NCBI GenBank assembly: GCA_022868165.1
Contig: JALHYA010000004.1
Location: forward strand, 16,457-80,456
Origin: Patescibacteria group bacterium
GTDB taxonomy: Bacteria > Patescibacteriota > Microgenomatia > UBA8517
Direction: 5' to 3'
Length of the DNA: 64,000 nucleotides
The notes under the pieces are model-generated. The model was not told where the DNA came from. It searched no databases and worked only from the letters and a program-made list of their open reading frames with translations. Positions 3,836-52,410 of this stretch are shown here, in pieces. Both the position numbers and the translations under genes were made by a program. Position 1 is the first letter of the stretch, and every line of letters begins with the position of its first letter.

Positions 3836-3925
3836 ATTATTTATTGTTAGAGGTTAGAAGTTTGAAATGGGAAGTTAGAAAATTCCAATATCTAGCATCG
3901 ATGTCTAGCGTCCAGCATCCAACTT
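3836..3925. repeat. Palindromic mini-repeat, same family (copy C) with internal inverted arms
   Basis: gaggttagaagtttgaaatgggaagttagaaaattcc...ctagcatcgatgtctagcgtccagcatccaacttccca (tgggaagtt.. / ..aacttccca inverted). Confidence 0.6.
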
Positions 3926-5638: not shown

Positions 5639-8203
5639 CTACCTTCTAAGGATTGGCTTCAATAAAACAATTCTTTCTTCAATGTTAGCTCCAACCTCTG
5701 CAAATTCCTTGGATAATTCCTTCCTGTACGCGTCACTTGCCATGGCCTCCTCCGCTATCCCAGCAAGCATTCCAGCCCTCGCGACAACGGTGGCATAAAA
5801 TTTCGTCATCCTTGCCATATATTCGCCATAGTGTGCATCAATATCGTCTCTTTTCTCGGGCAAATACCTAAAGGCAGTAATCCATTTAGCAATATCCATT
5901 GCCCAATCACTCCTTCTTGATTTGTCTATACCGGCGGCTCCCCACATCCCATGCTCATATGACGTACGAAGTACTACTAAAAGCGGAACAAGCGAGATGG
6001 TCAAGGCTGTCATTGGCAGCTGTTCGTCCCTTTCACCCAAATCGGACCTTTTAAGTAGCTCCTTTAAGTTGTCGGGGCTGGAAAAGAACACTTCCAACTG
6101 ATCCTTCGCTGCCATTTCTGGATCAAGCATTGTAACAACATAGCGAACGGTTTGCCCAATAGTAATCATCCAACGATAGAGTGCTTGATCTCCCATCTTT
6201 TCCCATTTCAACTCGGACATCTTTTCCCCGGTTCTTAACTGATCCCAGACTGTCTGTTGCCCCGGCCTTTCGACCGGTTCGGCCCCTACGTTGACAAATT
6301 TGGGTTTGATGTCTCTATCGCCCTTAAATGAAATTGTATTCAAAAAGTTTAGAGAGGCTATTTCTGGTGGAAAAAAGAAAGGAATTTTCAAAAAAAGAGG
6401 TTTTTCAATTCCGTTCTCGTCTTTGACCATAATTTTAGAATCTTTTATTGATGTTTCCCAATACCAAGCCATCTTTTCCAATAATTTTCGCGTTTTCGGA
6501 TTCCATTCGAAGTTGCCTTCCGGCACCCAAAGTTTGTTCCATGCAGTTCTTAATTTAGGATCCTGATTAACAATTTTTTCTACCTCAATCCAACCCTGTT
6601 TCCAATCTGGAGCATGATCTCCTAGCTCGCTGCGATAATCAGGGCTCGTGGGTGGCAAAAAACCCTTAGACCAGGCCTTGTTTTGATTAACTCTCTCGGT
6701 CTCTCTCCAATAGGCTGGTGTGCTTATGTCGGTCGCAACAGTAGGTCCCCCGAGAGATTTTTCTCTTTTGACATGTAATTCCCAGGGCTCGCTTTTTCTT
6801 TTTTCAATGTCTTTAGTTTCTCGTACATCAATAGAATAATTCCATCCCCACGACATCTCTGCGGAAGACATATGGCCCCAGTCCATCACTACTCCTGCCC
6901 TGGCTACTACTGCAGCCAGTTTGTCCTCTATTTTTCTTGAAGGGGAAAACCAATCCCCAAGCTTCTCTATGTATTTTGCTTTTACAGTGCTAATTAAGTT
7001 GTCCATTCCGACTTGGTCAAAACCTTTAATCCCGTTTTCTTCTTTTTCCAACTTACTTAACTCTTCCCGAGTATTTCCCGTTAGCAAAGTTTCCATTATT
7101 GCCAAATAGGTTCTTTTCTTTTCTTCAACGCTTCCCATGGCGTACCAATTTAGAAGATTAAGCGGAACAGGAGTATCTCCGGTTTTGCCCTTGTAAATAG
7201 CCCAGCCGCCTTCCACTTTGAAATCGCCAATTTTTTGTATAAGCCCTTCTGCATATACCTTGGCTTTTTCTCTAATCTTATCTTTGAGCTTCTCTTCTTG
7301 TGCCCGTTCGGCATCTGGGTCATAGTCGGTAAATACTTTACGAATGAAATATGTTTCTGCCGGTGTCAATTTCTCCATAAAAGTACTATTTGCCGGATCA
7401 TCAAGGTCAATTTGCTGTACCGCAGCAACATTCATTCTCCAATATGCACTGTCATCCTGATACCGAATTGCTTTCTCCCTCAATCCGTCGGCTTTCTCTT
7501 TTAGGACTACTTTCTCCGTATCCGTTAACTTCAATCCAGGCAGTTCTTTGGCAAATGTCCGCTCGTAAAAAGAAGCAGTCGGATCGCTTCGAAGAGGAAC
7601 GCTGACCCACTGCATCATCTTCTTGCCGTCGTAAAAAGCAGGAAGAACGGATCCTAGTCCTTCCAATAATCGAAAGTTGGCCTCACCCCACGTTGCGTCA
7701 ATTGCTATCCTATCTAACCAAGAATCAATCTTTGTCCGAACGTCTTCTTCTGGGCTCGCGCCTGGAACCTTCTCCGGCCACTCCTCTTGCCGGGCTTTTT
7801 GCACGGCTTCGTGCAAATTATCAAACCACATCTCCTGCCTTCTGGAATCGTAAGGATAAGGGCTCTTAAACCTGAGGAGTTGGTTATCAAGCATTCCCTG
7901 AAGCTCGTTTAGCTGCGCTCCCATCAGTTTCTCAAAATTTTTTGGGATCTCTTTTTCTACCCTTGCTGCCAATTCTTCGGCCTCCCTGATTAACTTATCT
8001 TTCTGAGGCCCACTCGCTTCCCTTCTTACTTTATCCAAGTTTGCCAATGCTCTAAGTCCGTTTAAGGTCGCGAGAAAGCTGGGCTCGACATAAAAATACT
8101 CGCGGCCTTCTCCTCTCAAGGGGTCATATTCTCCACCCCCACCCTCCTTGCCCTGTGCTTGGTAGTTAATTCGGGGGCCGAAATCGGGTCTGTTTTCCAT
8201 CAC
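5639..8203 (-). CDS. Large (854 aa) Trp-rich soluble protein of unknown function, antisense within the T4SS-like cluster
   Basis: Long uninterrupted ORF, no TM segments, no recognisable motifs. Confidence 0.5.
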   Translation of the reverse strand: MMENRPDFGPRINYQAQGKEGGGGEYDPLRGEGREYFYVEPSFLATLNGLRALANLDKVRREASGPQKDKLIREAEELAARVEKEIPKNFEKLMGAQLNELQGMLDNQLLRFKSPYPYDSRRQEMWFDNLHEAVQKARQEEWPEKVPGASPEEDVRTKIDSWLDRIAIDATWGEANFRLLEGLGSVLPAFYDGKKMMQWVSVPLRSDPTASFYERTFAKELPGLKLTDTEKVVLKEKADGLREKAIRYQDDSAYWRMNVAAVQQIDLDDPANSTFMEKLTPAETYFIRKVFTDYDPDAERAQEEKLKDKIREKAKVYAEGLIQKIGDFKVEGGWAIYKGKTGDTPVPLNLLNWYAMGSVEEKKRTYLAIMETLLTGNTREELSKLEKEENGIKGFDQVGMDNLISTVKAKYIEKLGDWFSPSRKIEDKLAAVVARAGVVMDWGHMSSAEMSWGWNYSIDVRETKDIEKRKSEPWELHVKREKSLGGPTVATDISTPAYWRETERVNQNKAWSKGFLPPTSPDYRSELGDHAPDWKQGWIEVEKIVNQDPKLRTAWNKLWVPEGNFEWNPKTRKLLEKMAWYWETSIKDSKIMVKDENGIEKPLFLKIPFFFPPEIASLNFLNTISFKGDRDIKPKFVNVGAEPVERPGQQTVWDQLRTGEKMSELKWEKMGDQALYRWMITIGQTVRYVVTMLDPEMAAKDQLEVFFSSPDNLKELLKRSDLGERDEQLPMTALTISLVPLLVVLRTSYEHGMWGAAGIDKSRRSDWAMDIAKWITAFRYLPEKRDDIDAHYGEYMARMTKFYATVVARAGMLAGIAEEAMASDAYRKELSKEFAEVGANIEERIVLLKPILRR

Positions 8204-11803: not shown

Positions 11804-14163
11804 GCCAAGAAGAAGCTCGAAAACTTTTAGATGCATGGGCGTTTTTCGATAAACATCCCGAAGCCAAAAGCTGGGAAGGAATGCCGCGGCCAGAATTTTA
11901 TCGGCTGGTACAAATCATTGCCGGCACTGACAATTTGGTCGATGCCAAGGAATATTTCGAGGGAGTTGCCGCAGGAACCATAACCGGCGACATGCCGACC
12001 GCACTTCTTGAGGCCCAAAAAGAAGGGCAAGATATTTCCACGCGCCTTTCGACTTCCAAAAGTGCTTCGAGAGTCACAAAGGGTTGGTTGGCCAAATTAA
12101 GCACTAAGAGCGCAGAGGAAGTAGCAGAAAAGCAGGTGGCTGCGGCCCAAGTTCGGGCCGTAGTCGAAAGAGCAGAGGAAGAAACTCCCGCACTCAAAGA
12201 GGTTCCAAAGCCTAAAGCAACCAAGACGGTCGTGCCCTCTTCCGCGGAGACCCCGCCCTCGGCACCGGCCACAACACCGTCTACACCCGTTGAGGAAGGC
12301 CTTAGTATAAAAATTTCCAGCGGGGCATTTGGGTCTTTTGAACAAATGGCCGGAAAAGCGGCAGGAACTCCCCTGGCAATAATTTCTATGTTCTCTCCCC
12401 CCAAGAGCTCGATGACTCCCCAAACAAGCGCCGCTGTTTCGAGCGCCCTAAGTCTTTCCCAAGTAGCACAAAGGGCCGAAAAACTTCCTGAGGCGGACAG
12501 AGAGCACATCTTGTCTTTGGTTAACAATCTTAGAAAGGCCGAGTTTTCTTTTGTCCAACAAACCCGGCTTCTTTCCGTTCGAGAAATCACTATTCTCAGC
12601 GGTTCCGAGTTCGGGATGGACCAGGAAAGCATAGTTGCCCTCCTCGGCGGAGGGCGGGGTATTCCCGAAAGAGGCCCTTCTTTCGTTGCTCGGGTAGGAC
12701 AACAGCTTTTCGGCAGCATCGCCAAAAAGGCGGCAAGCAAGGCAATTGCAGGAGCACTAACCAAAGCAGGAATCTCTGTTGCCGGCAAAGCCGTTGCCGG
12801 AGCCGTAGGTCAGGCCGCAATCCCCATTCCCGGAGTCGGTTTTATTGTCGGCCAAATTATCGACTGGATTGCAAATAAAGCAGTGGATCTGGCCTCCCGT
12901 GTAGCTATCTGGATTAAAGAACACGGAAAAGAAGTTGTCGGGGGTCTTTTGATTGGCGGAGGAATCTTAATCGGCGGGTTTGCCGGATTGGCTGCCGGAA
13001 TTGCTGGCGGAGCAATTGCGCTGGGCGGTTCCGGGCTAAGCACAATCGCATCTGGAATTGGGAGTTTCTTTTCATTTATCTTTACCGGAATAATTCTTCC
13101 TTCAATTGGAATTCCGATATTGGTAGCCCTCTTTGCTGTTCCTGCAGTTATTGTAATTATTCTTTTTATTATCAACTCCAGTGCCTATATTGTCCCTCCT
13201 CGGACGGGATTTATAAGCGGAGAAAATCCTTATATAGGCGTAGAAAAAGTAGCCAGCCCCACGGGGCCCTTTAGCAACGACGACCTTTTCAAAACTCCCC
13301 CGATAGTTGTCGAATATACCATCACAATAACGGCGAAAAAGGGTACTCTGACCAATATAAGTTTTGCTTATGACTGCGAGGTTATAAAAAAGGGCTCGAC
13401 AGAGGACTGCCCTAATGCAAATTTAGTCGACTCGCAAGGGAAAGCAATTACAATTGGGCCGCAAGCAAACTTAAGAATCTCTCCGACCGAGCCCTACAAA
13501 ATTACATATCAAGCCCAGTATTCCGGCGGCCGCTTTCAAGACTCTGCAATTATAGATACCCTGACGGTTACCGCGGACGCGGCAGAACAAAACGGGGCGC
13601 AAGCAAGCGGCGGTGCAGCCGTAATAATCGGAAACCCCCCGACCGGCTGTTTCAGGTTTGATGATTCCTGGCCGGCCAATCTAAAGGCAAATGAGGTTAG
13701 AGCAATTACCGAGCTTACAAGGGCCAGTGTATATATGACAAGACTTTGTGCTGCAGGAGAAATTGTTCTGAAATACGGCGGGAACAACGGCGGTGTCGGC
13801 GGAGATGTTATCGCCGGTCCCAACATTATCACCATCTATTCTGCGGGCGTGCAATATGGACCCACAAGCACCCTCTATACCACAACGCACGAATCGGGCC
13901 ACATCTTTGCAAGAAGATATGGAGGAATTTTTAGACAATATGCGGACACGCCTGGCGTTGGCAATGTTCTTATCTGCACTTATCCTTTCAACAACAGCGT
14001 TGGAGAAAGCTTTCCCGAAATGATAGGTCTTTTTGTGGCCAACAGCCCGGGACATGCCCCAATTAATCTCTTCGGCTGTTTGGGTGGAAGTTTTAAAACC
14101 AAATATCCTGCACACTGGCAGTTTGCGCGAAACGTAATTTTTCAGCAAGACCTGGGGTGGTAA
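11800..14163 (+). CDS. Large membrane protein (Ala/Pro-rich N-terminal region, Gly-rich multi-TM core, extracellular C-terminal domain), T4SS-associated, unknown function
   Basis: 787 aa; TM block 'GGLLIGGGILIGGFAGLAAGIAGGAIALGG...'; C-terminal HESGH (HExxH-like) motif of uncertain significance. Confidence 0.5.
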   Translation: MSQEEARKLLDAWAFFDKHPEAKSWEGMPRPEFYRLVQIIAGTDNLVDAKEYFEGVAAGTITGDMPTALLEAQKEGQDISTRLSTSKSASRVTKGWLAKLSTKSAEEVAEKQVAAAQVRAVVERAEEETPALKEVPKPKATKTVVPSSAETPPSAPATTPSTPVEEGLSIKISSGAFGSFEQMAGKAAGTPLAIISMFSPPKSSMTPQTSAAVSSALSLSQVAQRAEKLPEADREHILSLVNNLRKAEFSFVQQTRLLSVREITILSGSEFGMDQESIVALLGGGRGIPERGPSFVARVGQQLFGSIAKKAASKAIAGALTKAGISVAGKAVAGAVGQAAIPIPGVGFIVGQIIDWIANKAVDLASRVAIWIKEHGKEVVGGLLIGGGILIGGFAGLAAGIAGGAIALGGSGLSTIASGIGSFFSFIFTGIILPSIGIPILVALFAVPAVIVIILFIINSSAYIVPPRTGFISGENPYIGVEKVASPTGPFSNDDLFKTPPIVVEYTITITAKKGTLTNISFAYDCEVIKKGSTEDCPNANLVDSQGKAITIGPQANLRISPTEPYKITYQAQYSGGRFQDSAIIDTLTVTADAAEQNGAQASGGAAVIIGNPPTGCFRFDDSWPANLKANEVRAITELTRASVYMTRLCAAGEIVLKYGGNNGGVGGDVIAGPNIITIYSAGVQYGPTSTLYTTTHESGHIFARRYGGIFRQYADTPGVGNVLICTYPFNNSVGESFPEMIGLFVANSPGHAPINLFGCLGGSFKTKYPAHWQFARNVIFQQDLGW

Positions 14164-14164
14164 A

Positions 14165-14737
14165 ATGTTTCGGATGAATAAAAAAATCGTTGTTGTTGGA
14201 ATAATTATTTTTATCTTGCTTTTTGGAGCAATTTTCCTTCTTGGTGCGGGACGTAAAAAAACGCCCACTCCTGTTCCAACTACAACCTCGGGGGTTTCCT
14301 GGCAAGGCCTCGTCGCCGGCAAGAGCACAAAGGACCAGGTCAATGGTGTACTGGGAAACCCTCTCAGTGAAACTTCCTCGGGAAATCAAACTACAAACAC
14401 ATATTCTTCCTTAAGCGAAACCCGACCCAACAGTGCCGTTTTTGACAACAACTCCAATACCGCACTGTTTTTAAGGCAAATCGTTTCCGCTAAAGATACC
14501 AAAACAACAAAAGACATTGTGGATGTGTATGGGGAAACAAACACAAAGCTTTACGGCCTTGATTGGATAAACGGGATTTACCTTTTTGTTTATCTGGACA
14601 AGGGGATTGCATATCTTGCAAACCCGGACAGCAACACCCTATTTGAAGTCTGGTATTTTCCTCCCACAACGCTCGACAATTTCCTAAAGACTTGGGCAAC
14701 CGATTATTCAACTCAACCCAAAAACCAACCCTTCTAG
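14165..14737 (+). CDS. Small N-terminally anchored secreted protein
   Basis: 190 aa, N-terminal TM, Ser/Thr-rich linker. Confidence 0.45.
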   Translation: MFRMNKKIVVVGIIIFILLFGAIFLLGAGRKKTPTPVPTTTSGVSWQGLVAGKSTKDQVNGVLGNPLSETSSGNQTTNTYSSLSETRPNSAVFDNNSNTALFLRQIVSAKDTKTTKDIVDVYGETNTKLYGLDWINGIYLFVYLDKGIAYLANPDSNTLFEVWYFPPTTLDNFLKTWATDYSTQPKNQPF

Positions 14738-15852
14738 CCCTGAAGTCTAACCGGCATTATAAGGTGAAGATAGTTGGGGTCTGTGGCTTCCTGAAACACT
14801 CCAGGAGCGGTGGCGGATGAGAAAGTTAGCGTTATGGCATCTCCTACGGCTGACTGCAAGAATTCTTCAACAAATCGATAATTGAATGCAATTTCAAATC
14901 CCTTACTTTCGCCCTCGACCTTTGCATCAACTACCGCCTTCTGGCTTCCGGTTTGGTTACTTTCGGCGCTTAACGAAAGTCCCCCTTTTGAAGTAGCAAA
15001 TCGAATTATGTTTGCCGAGTCTCTGGCAAAAACCGAGGATGTTTTGACCGCCCTTAAAAGTTCCTCTTTGTCCACTCCGACTTTTACTTGTCCTCCTTTG
15101 GGGATTATTTTTTCAAAATCGGGAAAGTCCCCTTCCAAAATTCTTGTCGAAAAAACACAATCCCCCACTTCAAAAACCACCTGACTGTCTTTTTCTTTAT
15201 AGGAAAGGGAGATCTCTTCTGCCTCCGCCGAAAGCCTGGAAATTTCTCCCAAAGCGCTTTTCGGCAAAATAATCTTTTGCGGCTTTCCTCCCCCACCCAA
15301 AGAAATCTTCTTTTGGGAAAGCCTAAACCCGTCGGTTGCAACCATTGTCAAGAATCCTTTCTGAAAAAGAAAAAGAACCCCCGTAAGAATGGGCCTTGTC
15401 TCGTCTACTGATGCCGAAAAAACAACCTGAGAAAGGGCCCGGGAAAATTCTTCTTTGGGTAGAAGTATTGAGTTTTGTTTATCTACGCTCTGAGGAATTG
15501 AAGGAAAGTCCCCGGCGTTCATTCCGGAAATGTTGCTTTCAAAACCCTGTGCCGAAATTTGAATTTTTTCTTTTTCTACGGATAATTCAATTTGTCCCGG
15601 AGGAAGATTGGCTACAAGTTCCGAGATAACCCTTGCCGGTACTGTAATTTCTCCCTCTTTTTGTACCTGTGCCCCTATGGAAATTGCAACCGAAATTTCT
15701 AAATTTGTTGCCAAAATGGAAAGTTTTGTCTTCTTTGCCGAAAGAAAGATATTTCCCAAGACAGGAAGTTGGGCTTTGCTGGAAGTAAATCTTAAGGCCG
15801 TATTAAGGGCTTTGGATAAGTTCTCCTGAAGAACAGTAAGTTTCATTTCCAT
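14734..15852 (-). CDS. dnaN: DNA polymerase III beta sliding clamp
   Basis: 372 aa, three-domain clamp-like sequence, immediately downstream of dnaA. Confidence 0.85.
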   Translation of the reverse strand: MEMKLTVLQENLSKALNTALRFTSSKAQLPVLGNIFLSAKKTKLSILATNLEISVAISIGAQVQKEGEITVPARVISELVANLPPGQIELSVEKEKIQISAQGFESNISGMNAGDFPSIPQSVDKQNSILLPKEEFSRALSQVVFSASVDETRPILTGVLFLFQKGFLTMVATDGFRLSQKKISLGGGGKPQKIILPKSALGEISRLSAEAEEISLSYKEKDSQVVFEVGDCVFSTRILEGDFPDFEKIIPKGGQVKVGVDKEELLRAVKTSSVFARDSANIIRFATSKGGLSLSAESNQTGSQKAVVDAKVEGESKGFEIAFNYRFVEEFLQSAVGDAITLTFSSATAPGVFQEATDPNYLHLIMPVRLQG

Positions 15853-16176
15853 GAGTATATAAAAAGGTTCTCAAAACACAAGTCGTACTTTTGATTATGA
15901 CAGCATTCAAAAAACCGTGAGTGCAAGCTCTCAAATGAATTGAATGCTGACATGTCATCCTTCAAAACAAAAAAGCCTCAACTGTAAGATCGTAGAAGGA
16001 TGTCATTAAAATAGTCGTGATAGTAGTAGGTGAAGTTGATAAGTGGAAATTTTGACATATATGAATTTAAGTTTCGGGACAAATTCGTGTTGACATCAAA
16101 TATATCAATTTGTGGATTCTTTTGTGGATAGTTTTGAGGCGAGTGTTGATATGTTGGTGCTTTTTGCCAACTATCC
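15853..16176. other. dnaA-dnaN intergenic region with DnaA boxes (candidate oriC segment)
   Basis: TGTGGATTC (16111-16119) and TGTGGATAG (16124-16132), close to the consensus TGTGGATAA; AT-rich; inverted repeat ATGTCATCCTTC...GAAGGATGTCAT. Confidence 0.5.
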
Positions 16177-17538
16177 TCAAAGCCTCTGTTTTATCCCCAA
16201 GATATCCTGGCGGATTTGCACATCGGTCGAAGCCATCTGGGTTATTTTGTCCACAGCGTGCATTACGGTAGTATGATCTCTTCCTCCCACAAGCCTCCCA
16301 ACTTCTTCCAGAGGAAGCCCCAGGTCCCTTCGAAGTAAATACATCAGTATCTGCCGGGGTCTGGCGACGGGCCTTGCTCTGGAATCTCCAAGAAGGGAAC
16401 GTTTTCCTAAGGAGAAGTGTTTGGACACCGCGGAGATGACGTTTTCCGGATTAACCCTTTTTGTTTGCAAAGCTTGCGACTCCCCCTTACCGAGAAGTGA
16501 CTGAATAAGCTCTTCGGTTATTTGTGTATTTTTTAGTTTCGCTTCAGAAGAAAGCCTTACCAAAAACCCTTCAAGCTTTCGGGCTGAGTCGGTGTTGGCT
16601 GCAATAAGCTGAACCAATTCCATAGGAAGCTCTATTCCCCTACCGGCCGCCTTTATCTGCAAAATCGCACAGCGCAACTCAAAATCCGGGGGCGCAATGT
16701 CAACAATTAATCCCGCCTCAAAACGGCTTCTTAATCTTTCCTCGAGTTTTGATATTTCGGAAGGGGGCCTGTCGGAGGTTAAAATAATTTGACCCCCGGC
16801 GCTGGTTACGGCGTTGAATGTGTGGAAGAATTCTTCCTGCACTGCGTCCTTGCCAGCAATAAACTGAATGTCGTCTATTAAAAGGGCATCAAGTTTGCGG
16901 TATTTGTTTCTGAAAGATTGTGTCGTTTTGTTTCTTATTCCCTCCACGATGTCGTTGGTAAAATCTTCTCCGGTACAAAAAAGAACGTTTGGGTTGGGAT
17001 TTTTGCTTAAGATTTCATACCCGACAGCAATCATTAAATGGGTTTTCCCAACCCCAACGCCTCCCCAAATAAAAAGAGGGTTATATGCGCTCCCCGGAGT
17101 TTTTGAAACCGCGTCAGCCGCAGCCCACGCCATTTGATTGGAAGAAGAGACGGCAAAGTTTTCGAAAGTAAACCCCTGTCTAATCCTTGCCCTAGCTAGC
17201 GCCGTAGAAAGCACTTCCAAAGATTCCTTTTCCTGATTAAACAAAGGGGCGAGAGAGTTTTCGATTGCTTTTGTTTTTGGCGCCTGTTTTACTACAAAGA
17301 GGATGTCGCAGGGCTTCCCCAACTGTTTTGTCAAGCTGTCTTGAATCAGTCCAAAATATCTCGACTCAATGGTTGTCTTAACAAAAGGGGAATTGCAACC
17401 GACCTGTGCGGTTGCCCGATCGTTTATGTCGGCAAGATCTATTAGGTGGGTTTGGGAAAACCATGTAGAGAAAATTGCGGGGGAGACTGCAACCTTTATA
17501 CTCTCAAGGACATCGTGCCAGAGTCTATTTGCATCCAT
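16177..17538 (-). CDS. dnaA: Chromosomal replication initiator DnaA
   Basis: AAA+ P-loop 'GGVGVGKTHLM'; C-terminal DnaA-box-binding domain 'RPRQILMYLLRRDLGLPLEEVG..DHTTVMHA'. Confidence 0.9.
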   Translation of the reverse strand: MDANRLWHDVLESIKVAVSPAIFSTWFSQTHLIDLADINDRATAQVGCNSPFVKTTIESRYFGLIQDSLTKQLGKPCDILFVVKQAPKTKAIENSLAPLFNQEKESLEVLSTALARARIRQGFTFENFAVSSSNQMAWAAADAVSKTPGSAYNPLFIWGGVGVGKTHLMIAVGYEILSKNPNPNVLFCTGEDFTNDIVEGIRNKTTQSFRNKYRKLDALLIDDIQFIAGKDAVQEEFFHTFNAVTSAGGQIILTSDRPPSEISKLEERLRSRFEAGLIVDIAPPDFELRCAILQIKAAGRGIELPMELVQLIAANTDSARKLEGFLVRLSSEAKLKNTQITEELIQSLLGKGESQALQTKRVNPENVISAVSKHFSLGKRSLLGDSRARPVARPRQILMYLLRRDLGLPLEEVGRLVGGRDHTTVMHAVDKITQMASTDVQIRQDILGIKQRL

Positions 17539-17884
17539 TGTGGGAGGACAGGAGTAAGGGGATAGTAACTAAGTTATCAACAATCCGTCAATAGTCAAAA
17601 AGTCTCAGTTTTGTTATCCCTCGAGCTTTGTCGTAAACGCATTTTCAAAAAATGCTCGTCGGGTGTAGCACAAAGAAGATTGCAAATCTCACTCCTCGCT
17701 TGACGTTTCACCAGTCGGAATTTCTCTTACGAGATACAACATCCTTTTTATGACTGGTTCGACACATTTTTGAAAATGGTTTCCTCGCGCTCTCGGGGCA
17801 AACAAAGACTTTGGTAGAATTTTCCTTATCAACAATCCGTCAATCCCCAAAAAACTGGAGACTGGAAAATGGAGATTGGAAACT
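17539..17884. other. Region upstream of dnaA with DnaA-box-like repeats and AT-rich palindromes (candidate oriC / DNA-unwinding element)
   Basis: Perfect 19-mer TTATCAACAATCCGTCAAT at 17574-17592 and 17826-17844 (TTATCAACA differs from TTATCCACA by 1 nt); palindromes GCATTTTCAAAAAATGC (17640-17656) and CATTTTTGAAAATG (17769-17782). Confidence 0.5.
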
Positions 17885-18005
17885 TTATGACATCCTCCCC
17901 GCTCCAAAGAGCGGGGTTTCCCTCCAAAGGAGGATGACATATCGGCGTTCAATTCATCTCCGCAACAAATTGCGGAGCGTTCTTGAATGCTGTTATAATA
18001 CCCCT
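17885..18005 (+). promoter_or_regulatory. Repeated promoter/hairpin module (copy 1): long imperfect hairpin, second hairpin, extended -10 (TGtTATAAT), leaderless start for rpmH
   Basis: ~88% identical to 47740-47859; tgtTATAAT at 17992-18000, ATG 6 nt downstream; hairpins catcctcc/ggaggatg, ccccgctc/gagcgggg and ctccgcaa/ttgcggag. Confidence 0.55.
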
Positions 18006-18146
18006 ATGTCAACAAAAAGAACCTATCAACCGAAGAAAAGGAAAAGAGCAAAAACTCACGGATTTCGTGCGAGAGTTAAGTCCGCTTCCGGCCGCAGGGT
18101 CCTTAAAAGAAGGCGCCAAAAAGGCCGAAAAAGGCTGACTCCATAA
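18006..18146 (+). CDS. rpmH: 50S ribosomal protein L34
   Basis: [46 protein letters not shown], canonical L34. Confidence 0.9.
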
Positions 18147-31648: not shown

Positions 31649-33265
31649 ATGAGGAAACTAATATTGCTAATCTTTTCAGGTTTGATCTTTATTGCATTAT
31701 TTGTTGTCCCCAAAAACATTCAGGCTGCTTGTACTGGTAATACGAAATGCGCACCTTATAGTGGAGGCCATTGTTGGTGGGAGGAGAGTATGTACTATAC
31801 AGTAGGCTGTACCGCCTCGCCACAGTGCGAGGGGAATCCCTGTAATAAGGCCATTTGCCTAGTATCCGATACCTGTGCTTATGTCTGTAATCCTGGTGCA
31901 ACAACTTGTGGTCCTTGTTCCAAAACTTGTGGAGGAGGAATAAGTCTCTGTACGAATGGGTGTAGTTCGTGGAATGTGAATTGTAATACCCAGGCTTGTC
32001 CTCCGCCTGGCTGTCTTTGTGGTAACTGGGTGGACGGCGCCTGCGGTGTTGGTTTATGCGGCTCCAGCGAGCGGCAGCAAACAAGAACCTGTGTCCCTGC
32101 CGCCTGTGCCGCCGAAACCCAATGCGTTGTCGATCCAACTTGTACACTTCCTTCCAGTTGCACCGTTGATCTTCTACCGGCAACAGCCACAACATCAGTG
32201 GGCTCAAGCGTAACGCTTACGGCTTCGGTTACGGTAGGAAGTGGAACCGTTGACCAGGTAAATTTCACTTCTGCCAATACGGGGATTCTTACGGTAAGCC
32301 CGGCTTCCGACAGCACCGTGACGTATCAAACGCAGGCAACAGGGGTGGCCATTGGTTCAACTACCGTATCCACAGAGGTGATTATGGGCGGGGTTTCAAC
32401 TTGCGCTGATAGTGCTGGGTTAGGCGGAGGCACAGTTGTTAATGTGACTTCCGCAGGCCCTTGGTGGCAGGTGATTGATGCGGATATTACAACAAATGGA
32501 AGCATAACATCCAGCATTCCTGGAACTTGCGCCTTGCCGGGATGTAATCCCTTGTTTGATTTGGTCGGCCCCGGAGGCTATCCTGGTGTGCCTGCTTACG
32601 GGGGAACGGCAAGTTTTAGTACAGGCACGGTTTCTACTATTGGATGGCTGGCAAACACTTTAAGTCTAACTTCCAATAACCGGCAATATGCATATGCCTG
32701 GTTTAAGAGACTGATTCCTTCGGATGTAACTATGAATGAGATAACTTCACCTTCCATTGACGGCACCGAGCTTTCTTCAGGGGGAACGGCCAGTGGGGGA
32801 TACTATTATTACCGTTATGACGGCTCAAGCGGGCTGGATTTAACCATAAACACCGATGCTTCGTTGGGCACAAGAAAGGTAATTTTGCTGGTGGACGGGG
32901 CAGATTTGAACCTAAACGCAAGGATTAACTTCACAAAGGGACAGGGATTCTTTATGGCTTTTGTCGGCAAAACCCTGCTGGGGGCCAAGGGTAACATCAA
33001 TGTTTCTTCAACGCTTGGCGGAGGAGTCACACCCCATCTTGAAGGATTGTATGAAGCCGATGGCGCTTTCCATTCAGGAGCAGGAACAACACAGCTTTAT
33101 ATTCGCGGGTCTGTTGCGGCATATGGGGGAATGAATTTGGAACGGAATTTGACCGATAATTCCGCCACCCCGGCCGAAGTCTTTGAATACGCGCCCGATT
33201 TAATCTTCACCTATCCCTATAAACTTAGGGAAAGAAGGATCTTCTGGCAAGAAGTAGCCCCATAG
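31649..33265 (+). CDS. Cys-rich secreted adhesin-like protein (TSP1-like Cys-knot repeats, Ig-like domain, beta-helix-like C-terminus)
   Basis: Signal anchor 'MRKLILLIFSGLIFIALFVVPKNIQA'; 'CGPCSKTCGGGISLCTNGCSSW' resembles thrombospondin type-1 repeat cores; 'LTASVTVGSGTVDQVNFTSANTGILTVSP' Big-2-like. Its last 119 bp are duplicated at 39509-39627. Confidence 0.55.
   Translation: MRKLILLIFSGLIFIALFVVPKNIQAACTGNTKCAPYSGGHCWWEESMYYTVGCTASPQCEGNPCNKAICLVSDTCAYVCNPGATTCGPCSKTCGGGISLCTNGCSSWNVNCNTQACPPPGCLCGNWVDGACGVGLCGSSERQQTRTCVPAACAAETQCVVDPTCTLPSSCTVDLLPATATTSVGSSVTLTASVTVGSGTVDQVNFTSANTGILTVSPASDSTVTYQTQATGVAIGSTTVSTEVIMGGVSTCADSAGLGGGTVVNVTSAGPWWQVIDADITTNGSITSSIPGTCALPGCNPLFDLVGPGGYPGVPAYGGTASFSTGTVSTIGWLANTLSLTSNNRQYAYAWFKRLIPSDVTMNEITSPSIDGTELSSGGTASGGYYYYRYDGSSGLDLTINTDASLGTRKVILLVDGADLNLNARINFTKGQGFFMAFVGKTLLGAKGNINVSSTLGGGVTPHLEGLYEADGAFHSGAGTTQLYIRGSVAAYGGMNLERNLTDNSATPAEVFEYAPDLIFTYPYKLRERRIFWQEVAP
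33147..33265 (+). repeat. 119-bp direct repeat, copy 1 (3' end of the adhesin-like CDS incl. stop) = putative attL
   Basis: 100% identical to 39509-39627. Confidence 0.85.
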
Positions 33266-39508: not shown

Positions 39509-39627
39509 ATTTGACCGATAATTCCGCCACCCCGGCCGAAGTCTTTGAATACGCGCCCGATTTAATCTTCACCTATCCCTATAAACTTAGGGAAAGAAGG
39601 ATCTTCTGGCAAGAAGTAGCCCCATAG
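39509..39627 (+). pseudogene. 119-bp direct repeat, copy 2: orphan 3' fragment (last 39 codons + stop) of the adhesin-like gene 31649-33265 = putative attR
   Basis: 100% identical to 33147-33265; an in-frame TAG two codons upstream, no start codon. Confidence 0.85.
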
Positions 39628-39629
39628 GT

Positions 39630-40835
39630 TTAGGCTGAATCGACAATCGTCATCTCCGCGTTAGCTGAAATCTTTTCCAAGGAAGCGGGTTTGTTGTTGA
39701 AAAAGGCATATGAGGCGATATATGCGGCGTTGTCCGTGCAGAGATTTGCGGGAGGAAATCGTAAATCAACTTTTAACTTTTCACTTTTCACTTTTAACTC
39801 AAATACTTGTCGAAGACGAGTATTAGCCGATACTCCTCCAGCTAAAAGAAGGGATTTGGGCTTGAATTTCTTTACTGCGTCCAGAGTCTTTTTAACTAAA
39901 ACGTCAACGATTGCCTCCTGTATTTCTGCTGCCAGCCTGGAAGTTAGAGGTGGGAAGCTTGAAGCTGGATGTAGATGTTGGAGTTTAGATTTATTCCAAC
40001 TTCTAACTTCTTTGTCCAGCTTCTCACCTCTATTTTCCAATTTCTCTGTTTCCCTAAGCACCGCTGTCTTAAGGCCCGAAAAACTGAAGTCAAAATTATC
40101 CTCATCAATCATCGGTCTGGGAAGTAGATTTAGTTGGAAGTGGGAGGCAGGAGGCTGGAAGTTCGCTGCGGCGGCGGCGATGGCTGGTCCTCCCGGGTAG
40201 GGAAGTCCCAAAAGACGGGCGGACTTGTCAAAAGCCTCGCCGGCCGCATCATCCCTTGTTCCTCCAATCCACTCTATTTTTCCCCGCCCGCCAGCGCTAC
40301 GCGCAAGCGTTGCGGGCGCGGCGTGGCCTTTCATCAGAACCAAATCCGTATGTCCTCCGGAAACAACCAGTGCCAGTGCCGGAAATTCCGGCCGACTATC
40401 CGTTAGCCAGTTGGCGTATATGTGTGCCACAAGATGGTTAACCGGAATAACAGGCTTTTTCCATAAATAGGAAAGGGTTTTGGCCGTTTCTACTCCGACC
40501 AAAAGGGAACCAATAAGGCCCGGCCCGACGGTTACGGCAATGGCGTCTATATTGGAAGATAGAAGATGGAGGTTTGAAGCTAGATTTTGATGTTGGATAT
40601 TAGATTTTTCCTCCAACTTCGAACTTCTAACTTCAGAGACAGTACTTAGTGCTTCGGAGATAACAGGAAGAACGCTGAGAACCTGCTGGCGTGCAGCCTG
40701 CTCCGGGATTACGCCGCCAAATTTGGCCTGCATTTCCGCGCTCGATGCAACAACATTGGAAAGAATTTTTGTTCCGTCTTCGACAACTGCCGCTGCAGTT
40801 TCATCACATGAGGTCTCTATCCCCAGAATTTTCAT
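39630..40835 (-). CDS. tsaD: tRNA N6-adenosine threonylcarbamoyltransferase TsaD carrying two in-frame low-complexity insertions derived from palindromic mini-repeats
   Basis: 'MKILGIETSCDETAAAVV', 'VTVGPGLIGSLLVG', 'LVVSGGHTDL', 'DFSFSGLKTAV' TsaD/Kae1 blocks; 401 aa vs ~340 typical; extra segments coincide with repeats at 39935-40030 and 40553-40636. Confidence 0.8.
   Translation of the reverse strand: MKILGIETSCDETAAAVVEDGTKILSNVVASSAEMQAKFGGVIPEQAARQQVLSVLPVISEALSTVSEVRSSKLEEKSNIQHQNLASNLHLLSSNIDAIAVTVGPGLIGSLLVGVETAKTLSYLWKKPVIPVNHLVAHIYANWLTDSRPEFPALALVVSGGHTDLVLMKGHAAPATLARSAGGRGKIEWIGGTRDDAAGEAFDKSARLLGLPYPGGPAIAAAAANFQPPASHFQLNLLPRPMIDEDNFDFSFSGLKTAVLRETEKLENRGEKLDKEVRSWNKSKLQHLHPASSFPPLTSRLAAEIQEAIVDVLVKKTLDAVKKFKPKSLLLAGGVSANTRLRQVFELKVKSEKLKVDLRFPPANLCTDNAAYIASYAFFNNKPASLEKISANAEMTIVDSA
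39935..40030. repeat. Palindromic mini-repeat (copy D) inserted in frame in tsaD
   Basis: ggaagttagaggtgggaagcttgaagctggat...tccaacttctaacttctttgtccagcttctcacctc; arms gaggtgggaagcttgaagctgga / tccagcttctcacctc. Confidence 0.7.
40553..40636. repeat. Palindromic mini-repeat (copy E) inserted in frame in tsaD
   Basis: gaagatagaagatggaggtttgaagctagattttgatgttggatattagatttttcctccaacttcgaacttctaacttc. Confidence 0.7.
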
Positions 40836-47732: not shown

Positions 47733-47739
47733 GGGTGAA

Positions 47740-47859
47740 TTATGACATCCTCCCCGCTCAAAAGAGCGGGGTTCCCTCTAAAGGAGGATGACATATCAGC
47801 GTTCAATTCATCCCCGACTAAGTCGGGGTTTTCTTGAATGCTGTTATAATATACGCCCT
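47740..47859 (+). promoter_or_regulatory. Repeated promoter/hairpin module (copy 2) in front of a hypothetical gene; extended -10 TGtTATAAT, near-leaderless ATG
   Basis: ~88% identical to 17885-18005; second hairpin differs in sequence but keeps pairing (ccccgact/agtcgggg vs ctccgcaa/ttgcggag). Confidence 0.55.
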
Positions 47860-48267
47860 ATGGGAAAAGAAAGAAAAAACGATTTTATGCCCCAGGAAAT
47901 TTATGGCGATACGCCGGCGACAAGACGCTGGTTTGCGATTTCCATATGTGAGGTAGCCAAGTACAAGCTTAAAATTAGAGGCGTTCATGAGCCTTCTTGT
48001 GAGGAAATCGAAGCTTTCGTTAAACGGATTAAAGAAAAGCATCCGGGAGAGTGGGCGGTGTTGAGGGATAAGGCCTCGCAACTCCGAAGGAACGAATTCC
48101 TAAAAATAAAAAGAGAGCTCTTTGGGGAAGCCGCGTTTTCTAAGGATGTTTTGATAGGTGTTGGCGAAAAAGTAGAGGAAATTTATCAGGAAATAGACAA
48201 AGATTTGTCAAGAAACTGTGCATTTTTAGATAAAATAATTTTTCCCGAACAAGAGGAAGAAGAATAG
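47860..48267 (+). CDS. Hypothetical protein (136 aa), acidic C-terminus
   Basis: ATG placed 9 nt after the TATAAT of the repeated module (same geometry as rpmH); the longer ORF from 47788 would overlap the promoter module. Confidence 0.45.
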   Translation: MGKERKNDFMPQEIYGDTPATRRWFAISICEVAKYKLKIRGVHEPSCEEIEAFVKRIKEKHPGEWAVLRDKASQLRRNEFLKIKRELFGEAAFSKDVLIGVGEKVEEIYQEIDKDLSRNCAFLDKIIFPEQEEEE

Positions 48268-48356
48268 GAATCTTACTCAAAAAGTCTTTTAATGGCCGAA
48301 AGTTAGGACAAATTGCCACCAAATGGATTCCTTACCGAACGGTTGCTTCTTGGTAC

Positions 48357-52255: not shown

Positions 52256-52261
52256 AGCAGT

Positions 52262-52400
52262 TTCAAGGATACCACGAATTTTATTCGTGGAGGAATTGAA
52301 CCTGATATATCATACTTCGATGGTACTCAGTATGATACTGAGCTTGCCGAAGTATCATCCTTCCCTCAAGGGAAACCGCAAACTTTAGTTTGCTTAAGGA
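52262..52400. repeat. Cluster of four adjacent hairpins/palindromes between the GT4 gene start and the upstream small membrane-protein gene
   Basis: ccacgaattttattcgtgg; atcatacttcg..[ctcagtat/atactgag]..cgaagtatcat; ttccctcaagggaa; gcaaactttagtttgc. Confidence 0.5.
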
Positions 52401-52410
52401 TGTTATAAAG

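Follow-up and report, generated by a model that had tools for sequence, protein, structure and literature searches.

A small palindromic repeat upstream of rpmH in Woesebacteria as a probable non-autonomous mobile element

The window analysed here is a stretch of 64,000 nucleotides from a Patescibacteria group bacterium (assembly GCA_022868165.1, contig JALHYA010000004.1, positions 16,457 to 80,456), and the subject is a short palindromic module located just upstream of rpmH, the gene for ribosomal protein L34. An earlier note, made from the sequence alone, had regarded this module as a promoter and hairpin cassette shared with an unrelated gene 30 kb away. With a probability of about 80%, the module is one copy of a small non-autonomous palindromic interspersed repeat of Woesebacteria (Microgenomates, in the Patescibacteria or candidate phyla radiation, CPR), that is, selfish DNA of the kind of the MITEs (miniature transposable elements with inverted repeats) and of the Rickettsia palindromic elements (RPEs). 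The repeat is a fresh CPR example within the known class of small palindromic mobile repeats, and no earlier description of it was found in the literature searched.

Distribution of the repeat

The repeat unit reads ATGACAT...GCTGTT and is typically 108 nt long, although modular shorter and longer forms also occur. A first set of copies was obtained with a pattern built from two conserved blocks, which was run on one-genome-per-species contigs; 65 of its 82 matches are true elements of ~108 nt, and they belong to about 30 metagenome-assembled genomes (MAGs) of Woesebacteria, Microgenomates and Patescibacteria, with several copies per genome and up to 8-9 in one partial genome. A second, independently ascertained set comes from a scan of metagenome contigs with the central block alone, and places the element in at least 120 contigs, mainly from groundwater and sediment. 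Among the metagenome matches listed there are up to 3 copies within 5 kb and some tandem pairs, and the 3' block TTGAATGCTGTTATAA is exact in 65 of the 76 copies of this set. The viral contigs of IMG/VR yielded no element, only two chance matches.

The two stretches that the earlier note had reported as ~88% identical are indeed so: aligned globally, 17885-18008 and 47740-47862 agree in 111 of 127 columns (87.4%), the flanks are unrelated, and the similarity ends at both edges. A hidden Markov model (HMM) of the family, run with nhmmer, finds four copies in the window, which are named A (before rpmH), B (before g47860), C (before dnaN) and D (before a glycosyltransferase gene). They are listed here with two of the genes that they precede.

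17887..17994, plus strand: copy A, unit ATGACAT...GCTGTT, 108 nt (nhmmer E=5e-34; bounds from flank logos and the multiple-of-three rule described below)
18006..18146, plus strand: rpmH, ribosomal protein L34 (Pfam PF00468 Ribosomal_L34, E=1e-20)
47742..47845, plus strand: copy B, inserted unit of 104 nt, between the divergent genes g47732 and g47860 (nhmmer E=5e-33)
47860..48267, plus strand: g47860, a 135-aa protein without Pfam match
15899..16006, minus strand: copy C, 108 nt, in the dnaA-dnaN spacer; diverged, with decayed inner hairpins, 65% identical to copy A
52256..52406, minus strand: copy D, 151 nt, with an extra hairpin module of ~45 nt between the domains (found with the family HMM)

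The earlier note had also seen a half-site of the palindrome in the spacer between dnaN and dnaA. The recurrence is real, but the minus strand holds a third copy there in full (16006->15899), and not a half-site; this copy C carries TGTCATAAT 41 nt ahead of the dnaN ATG (15852). The end of copy D abuts the ATG (52255) of a family-4 glycosyltransferase gene, and its extra hairpin of ~45 nt (GATACTTCG...CGAAGTATG, window 52300-52345) is also found in locus L077. An alternative insert of ~35 nt between the hairpin domains carries TGGCAC-N5-TCGCA, which resembles a sigma-54 -24/-12 element (optional extra modules: copy D and L077; L041, L045, L048 and L074).

A 17-mer of the repeat is expected 0.3 times by chance in the window, and this figure, taken together with the recurrence in the window, in MAGs and in metagenome contigs, excludes chance as an explanation. 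The dispersed, non-orthologous placement of a short unit in many copies is what is generally found with MITE-like elements. For copy A, identity reaches 94% with a copy in locus L055, which belongs to a different MAG, and for copy B it is likewise 94% with one in L079, also outside the genome of the window; between A and B themselves it is 82-87%. In the MAG to which L079 and L076 belong, DnaA shares only 68% identity with its counterpart in the window, so that the element is either far better conserved than the host proteins or has moved between lineages.

Filled sites, empty sites and the inserted unit

The view of the module as a transposable cassette, already put forward in the earlier note, is borne out by the many copies at unrelated sites and by filled and empty sites within near-identical flanks. 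Three such pairs are available: L141 versus L184/L138, with flanks 97% identical, L110 versus L076 (90%) and L114 versus L135 (89%). In the cleanest pair the empty site reads aaagatTTATAAatatc and the filled one aaagatTTAT(GACAT...GCTGTTAT)AAatatc, the insert being enclosed in brackets. The empty allele of the L110 site shows a further difference of 6 nt (TTAAAAGTAA versus ATAA), which may be a footprint or an unrelated indel. Orthologous membrane-protein genes of two related genomes carry the element at different codons (L110:1210-1325 versus L076:281-594; the L076 copy lies near 42-154). Such presence and absence between near-identical sequences is again a general trait of MITE-like elements.

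Copy B offers a further comparison. A sister strain 93-95% identical to the window lacks this copy and reads ...CATgggtgaaTTATAATAcag... at the site, and its homology with the window stops at 47743, exactly at the left edge of copy B. Beyond this point a cassette swap is seen, in which window positions 47744-48356 (copy B, g47860 and 89 nt) correspond to L084:2381-2989 (a 175-nt spacer and a NUDIX gene), at nearly equal total length; the swap breaks on the left exactly at the element edge, and on the right at the stop codon of an M23 peptidase gene. A short-read assembly of the same strain (L083/L086) breaks inside copy B.

The flanks define what is inserted. Beyond GCTGT, on the right, T-A-T-A-A is kept in 64-67 of 68 copies, whereas the left side of ATGACAT shows no conservation, its neighbouring base being T (27 copies), A (17), G (9) or C (1). 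ATAA is not part of the net insertion, and no duplication can be demonstrated. From this flank pattern and the net length it follows that the inserted unit is ATGACAT...GCTGTT, and that ATAA (TTAT on the other strand) is a one-sided target.

The same comparisons bear on the proposal of the earlier note that the palindromes are operators for a shared regulator acting near the origin. According to this proposal, the copies would form a regulatory cassette through which a common regulator coordinates rpmH, dnaN and other origin-near genes; three of the four window copies precede genes, two of them flank dnaA, and palindromes could bind dimeric proteins. However, in the orthologous yidC-rnpA-rpmH and dnaA-dnaN region of L076 both spacers lack a copy, and rpmH has an ordinary promoter there (TTGTCA-17-TTTAAT). 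Copies are found beside or inside genes of any kind, within coding regions, at the 3' ends of convergent genes and beside unrelated genes, and their presence varies between near-identical strains. A fixed operator sequence is ruled out by the variable stems described below, and the regulatory cassette is on the whole very improbable.

Structure and covariation

An alignment of 39 canonical copies shows that the repeat folds into two adjacent long imperfect hairpin domains. The outer stem of domain 1 is CATCCT/AGGATG, lengthened by ATGA.../...GACAT, and within it lie a small hairpin and a variable one rich in GC. In domain 2 the outer stem CAGCGTTCAA/TTGAATGCTG, with a conserved G-T, surrounds a second variable hairpin. 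These elements are placed in copy A as follows.

17887..17940, plus strand: hairpin domain 1, outer stem ATGACATCCT/AGGATGACAT, small hairpin CCTCC aaa GGAGG
17897-17916, plus strand: inner variable hairpin of domain 1, CCCCGCTC caaa GAGCGGGG, beginning 10 nt from the element end
17943..17992, plus strand: hairpin domain 2, outer stem CGGCGTTCAA/TTGAATGCTG
17958-17977, plus strand: inner variable hairpin of domain 2, CTCCGCAA caaa TTGCGGAG, stopping 17 nt from the element end

Both hairpins recognised by the earlier note are present in copies A and B, namely the long imperfect hairpin ATGACATCCTCC...GGAGGATGACAT, which is common to them, and hairpin 2, which in copy B reads CCCCGACT-a-AGTCGGGG and differs from that of copy A by compensatory changes. 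Copy C adds another case in the outer stem of domain 1, with CCTTC/GAAGG for CCTCC/GGAGG.

Pairing is clearly under selection. Across the 39 copies 96.3% of the cells of this structure are paired, with 156 double-sided changes against 41 in shuffles, and the covariation score is 0.346, compared with 0.113 for shuffled and 0.04-0.075 for slid controls. A search for further copies and a covariation analysis of hairpin 2 had been suggested as checks by the earlier note, which had argued for selection on this structure from two copies; both checks agree with that argument, as the inner hairpin of domain 2 is 95.8% paired throughout the alignment, with double changes at 7 of its 8 pairs. Either strand folds as single-stranded DNA with z-scores of -6 to -10. 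Stem mismatches comprise 19 G-T and 23 A-C, counted outside the outer stem of domain 2, which was set aside because it is partly fixed by the search pattern, and they carry no strand signal. The plus strand as a selected RNA was dropped as a candidate, given that G-U and A-C mismatches show no asymmetry; the data hold no sign of selection for pairing in the RNA of one particular strand.

Copies inside genes

About 1 copy in 7 lies within a long open reading frame (ORF) that is read through it (12 of 65 copies in the first set and 8 of 73 in the second). The hosts with Pfam domains on both sides of the insert, or with a domain split by it, include MurC, arginyl-tRNA synthetase (ArgRS), D-Tyr-tRNA deacylase (Dtd), UvrD and several GT-C glycosyltransferases. 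All 20 of these copies, 12 in minus and 8 in plus orientation, are free of stop codons and keep the frame. The length from ATGACAT to GCTGT equals 2 modulo 3 in 12 of 12 and 8 of 8 in-gene copies, against 23 of 50 and 42 of 59 copies elsewhere (the length of L067 was counted by hand), so that within genes the length of the net insertion is divisible by three, usually 108 nt or 36 codons. From this pattern it appears that the host protein is read through the insert.

A profile of the encoded peptide, searched exhaustively against 1.84 billion representative proteins, gave 106 matches, and about 25 of them are proteins of more than 200 aa with the match internal. Among the families found are Wzy_C ligases, PMT_2, a methyltransferase, a KH/S1 protein, a racemase, GT2, a DEAD helicase and peptidyl-tRNA hydrolase (Pth). 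The exhaustive profile search was needed, since only short spurious ORFs came up when the peptide was used in a word-indexed search of proteins.

Insertions in rRNA genes are a known trait of CPR bacteria, and an intron-like intervening sequence, removed from the RNA, could explain how a conserved structured core comes to lie within MurC, ArgRS, Dtd and Pth. Nevertheless, all 20 in-gene copies are stop-free and keep the frame, and a multiple-of-three constraint is needed only if the insert is translated, which speaks against its removal from the RNA. The in-gene copies have either orientation, most copies are intergenic, and this explanation is the least probable of those considered.

Junctions with promoters

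The earlier note had attributed to the module a promoter with an extended -10 box placed before the ATG. The extended -10 box TGTTATAAT exists in both copies, 6 nt before the ATG of rpmH and 9 nt before that of g47860, but TTGAAT lies 5 nt from TATAAT and thus cannot be a -35 element. Nor does the module simply carry the promoter, as the element ends with ...GCTGTT, and ATAAT belongs to the target. The -10 box is therefore a hybrid, in which TG and the first T are the last bases of the element, while ATAAT is the target plus one flanking base. The junctions of copies A and B are these.

17992..17999, plus strand: hybrid extended -10 box of copy A; TGT (17992-17994) is the element end and ATAAT (17995-17999) the flank, ATAA being the conserved target
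47843..47850, plus strand: hybrid extended -10 box TGTTATAAT of copy B, 9 nt ahead of the ATG at 47860
47739..47747, minus strand: left junction of copy B, TGTCATAAT, 6 nt before the ATG of g47732 (47732)

A consensus scan of copy A finds neither a -35/-10 promoter nor a terminator; the sole promoter element present is the extended -10 TGnTATAAT. The ATG of rpmH (18006) lies 6 nt past the -10 hexamer TATAAT (17994-17999) and lacks a Shine-Dalgarno sequence. In the empty site of the sister strain, TATAAT lies 6 nt before the ATG of g47732, the window counterpart being TGTCATAAT. A minus-strand -10 box at the left end was considered as a general feature of the repeat and rejected, as it is seen in copy B only.

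In the first set, a start codon or tRNA in the same orientation follows within 16 nt at 14 of the 19 copies whose hexamer is TATAAT, against 2 of 50 for other hexamers (Fisher p=7.5e-9); in the second set the figures are 5-6 of 13 and 5 of 60, a weaker association. This geometry is widespread in the window also without the element, where 17 of 42 first genes (~40%) have TAnnnT 4-10 nt before the ATG, often TG-extended, and a Shine-Dalgarno-like motif is present at only 4 of 42 gene starts. Starts of the leaderless type are seen for instance at 8200, 28511, 28943, 40835, 40885 and 43180. The leaderless mRNAs proposed in the earlier note are plausible in view of this common arrangement, of the missing Shine-Dalgarno sequences and of the empty site of the sister strain, the transcription start itself being something that we infer.

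Since TTAT, or ATAA, is contained in TATAAT, the element would often land in the -10 box of leaderless promoters. It is proposed that -10 boxes of leaderless genes that contain TTATAA are where the element inserts, or where it is retained, and that an extended -10 (TGnTATAAT) would be rebuilt there from its last bases ...GCTGT-T and the target's ATAAT. Judging from geometry and statistics, rpmH and g47860 most likely keep a promoter that starts transcription at the ATG or a few bases before it. Correia elements, which carry outward promoters, provide an analogy to the rebuilt -10 of the repeat (PMC10969869).

Possible origin from an IS200/IS605 element

Read from the target side, the element runs from 5'-TTAT across the junction into AACAGCATTCAAGAAAA, a first hairpin, the interior, a second hairpin and AGGATGTCAT, after which it ends, and the hairpins lie 17 nt and 10 nt from the two ends. 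The segments between hairpins and ends contain zero indels across the 39 copies, an arrangement that corresponds to the subterminal hairpins of IS200/IS605 elements. IS608 cleaves 3' of a TTAC that lies outside the element and 19 nt 5' of the left hairpin, and also 10 nt 3' of the right hairpin, and its transposase reads the shape of the hairpin, not its sequence (PMC3201880). Recognition of this kind would explain why variation in the stems of the repeat is tolerated.

At gathering thresholds, Rfam finds two tRNAs in the window and nothing else. In a permissive scan 8 copies match HgcC (RF00062) at model positions 1-130 (E=1e-6 in 181 nt) with 28-34 bits, which is under the gathering score of 50 bits and indicates a distant resemblance, not membership. 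The motifs common to HgcC and the repeat, in its minus orientation, are GAUGA..UGAAC and CCCCGC...GCGGGGAGGA.GUCA, and there is a weak single match to sot0042. HgcC carries the right-end motif of the IS1341-type (tnpB) members of IS200/IS605, and PATEs, in which left and right ends are fused, are transcribed (PMC4615843).

On these grounds the repeat is somewhat more probably than otherwise a fused left-end/right-end derivative (PATE) of an IS200/IS605 element, which would use a Y1 transposase in trans and insert 3' of TTAT without duplication. The model proposes that the element moves as single-stranded DNA with the Y1 transposase supplied in trans, that insertion takes place 3' of TTAT and leaves no target duplication, and that the hairpins would be what the transposase recognises.

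Several observations weigh against this account, in whole or in part. No Y1 transposase was detected in ~1.2 Mb of element-bearing DNA by tblastn with an IS608 TnpA query, together with a scan for TnpB motifs. The sole TnpB/Cas12f-like gene (L147:7981-9555, 524 aa, PF07282 E=3e-18) has an element copy 7.5 kb away on the same metagenome contig, and its flanks show no similarity to the element. The element ends are themselves weakly inverted-repeat-like, TTATGACATCCTCC and TTATAACAGCATTC agreeing at 10 of 14 positions. The cleanest empty site is ambiguous over TTAT and allows a duplication of 0-4 bp, and at two of the three empty sites the sequence departs from what the simple model predicts (ATGG in place of ATAA in one, the 6-nt difference in the other). 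To these are added the sub-threshold HgcC scores, the lack of a strand signal in the stem mismatches and the weaker TATAAT association in the second set. From the weak likeness of the ends and the TTAT ambiguity, a cut-and-paste element with a 2-4-bp duplication may be an alternative.

Such a classical cut-and-paste MITE, Correia-like and not derived from IS200/IS605, would have short terminal inverted repeats, rely on a DDE transposase and duplicate AT, TA or TTAT at TTATAA. It is a possible, though less probable, explanation. Apart from the 10/14 likeness of the ends, the step from TTATAA to TTAT(...)TTATAA at the cleanest empty site is compatible with up to 4 bp being duplicated; several contigs have a gene for an rve-type integrase ~3 kb from a copy; and promoters that face outward from the ends of a MITE have a precedent in Correia elements (PMC10969869). 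Nevertheless, the flanks are one-sided, with AA in 94% on the right against TT in 50-67% on the left, and since only every second copy has a T next to ATGACAT on that side, duplication of TTAT or TA cannot apply throughout. The hairpin distances and the likeness to HgcC speak for the other origin, and no transposase with these ends was seen. In the search for a parent transposon, the neighbours of copy P0005 (GIY-YIG genes and the rve integrase 3 kb away) revealed no consistent partner. In ten related contigs (L093-L102) two small genes for GIY-YIG nucleases lie directly downstream of this copy, and LAGLIDADG endonuclease genes follow further along L093.

The HgcC resemblance could also be taken to mean that the repeats are functional small-RNA genes, related to HgcC or to transposon right-end guide RNAs, with a flank-derived 3' segment and acting with a TnpB-family partner or as regulatory RNA. 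The full-length, sub-threshold similarity to HgcC is recurrent in the minus orientation; PATE and sot RNAs are transcribed, with an effect on growth in Halobacterium (PMC4615843); the unpaired blocks are highly conserved, with the 3' block exact as given above; and one TnpB/Cas12f-like gene does occur on an element-bearing contig. Against this, no promoter is evident for the minus strand, the stem mismatches lack strand asymmetry, copies within genes occur in both orientations, and the TnpB-like gene is found once in ~1.2 Mb, with ends that do not match. Small-RNA genes are accordingly an unlikely explanation. Slightly less likely still is a version in which the repeats are stand-alone HgcC-like or right-end guide-RNA genes with a flank-derived 3' guide, used by the TnpB family for element retention or gene regulation, whose preference for TTATAA would rewire leaderless -10 boxes throughout a reduced CPR genome.

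Relation to known palindromic repeats

The mobile repeat favoured here has its closest counterparts, by description, in the RPEs, which are palindromic repeats of ~105-150 bp in a small genome, with no known transposase, and which insert in frame into unrelated housekeeping genes and add a conserved peptide to them, as is found here (PMC10969869, PMC3184786). The Woesebacteria repeat differs from them in belonging to another phylum, in being mostly intergenic, in its one-sided target and in its ends, which rebuild a -10 box. Homology in sequence with RPEs is not expected, because the sequence is HgcC-like.

With the PATE, HgcC and sot sequences (RF00062, RF02656) the repeat shares two subterminal hairpins, the lack of a clear duplication, a tetranucleotide at one flank and IS608-like distances (PMC4615843, PMC3201880). 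HgcC and PATEs were described from archaea. The repeat reaches 28-34 bits against 50, and no tnpA or tnpB with its ends was found. Unlike in PATEs, long outer stems enclose the inner hairpins, and frequent in-frame insertion into genes has not been described for PATEs.

The Correia elements (CREE) of Neisseria are likewise multi-copy, ~100-155 bp long, often located just upstream of genes and provided with outward sigma-70-type promoters (PMC10969869, PMC3184786). Their 26-bp terminal inverted repeats, TA duplication and IHF site are all missing from the 39-copy alignment. BOX elements resemble the repeat as modular, hairpin-forming intergenic repeats, and in the REPIN/RAYT system hairpin repeats are mobilised by a Y1-type transposase (PMC3184786, PMC4615843). 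The repeat is distinguished from both by the absence of a GTAG-type REP core and of boxA/B/C modules, and by stems that vary between copies.

Other features of the window

Intergenic purine-rich tracts with a period of ~8 nt (TAGAGGTTAGAAATTGGAAGCTAGAAACTAGA and relatives) are found at 813-844, 3848-3879, 39938-39969 and 40553-40584, and at 17858-17884 to the left of copy A. Similar tracts lie beside copies in L001, L022 and L073, and the rpmH-dnaA spacer of L076 has periodic tracts of the TAGTAC type. Signs of an origin are seen at ~14000-18000, where the cumulative GC skew has its minimum, and the DnaA-box-like sequences ctATCCACAaaagaATCCACA and TTTCCACTTATCAAC occur at 16040-16135, in the dnaA-dnaN spacer beside copy C; the boxes are shared with L076.

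A perfect direct repeat of 119 nt is present at 33147-33265, at the 3' end of a 554-aa ORF, and again at 39509-39627, 6.3 kb downstream and before tsaD. Between the two lie housekeeping-like genes, namely adk, an adk-ribA fusion, a DegT aminotransferase, DUF84 and tRNA-Thr. This repeat was considered as the attachment site of an integrated element, and was rejected because no integrase lies between the copies.

Consequences for annotation and for CPR biology

The element has practical effects on annotation, since it yields spurious ORFs of 40-85 aa (from intergenic copies, P0001-P0029), wrong start codons, breaks in assemblies and 36-codon inserts in essential proteins. Public gene calls place the start of g47860 at an ATG within the element (47788). 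Exact-protein look-ups for rpmH and g47860 gave no match, as the public calls use other start codons, and that for rnpA matches the same strain only.

For the biology of these bacteria, the finding means that a CPR genome that is tiny and poor in transposases puts up with an RPE-like element inside MurC, ArgRS, Dtd and Pth, as well as at promoters, namely those of rpmH, dnaN and tRNA genes. The element is, moreover, indirect evidence that leaderless extended -10 promoters may be the norm in this lineage. If the link with IS200/IS605 is true, the archaeal HgcC RNAs would be connected with a bacterial CPR repeat, and this repeat would represent a derivative of a single-strand transposon that targets -10 boxes and yet preserves them.

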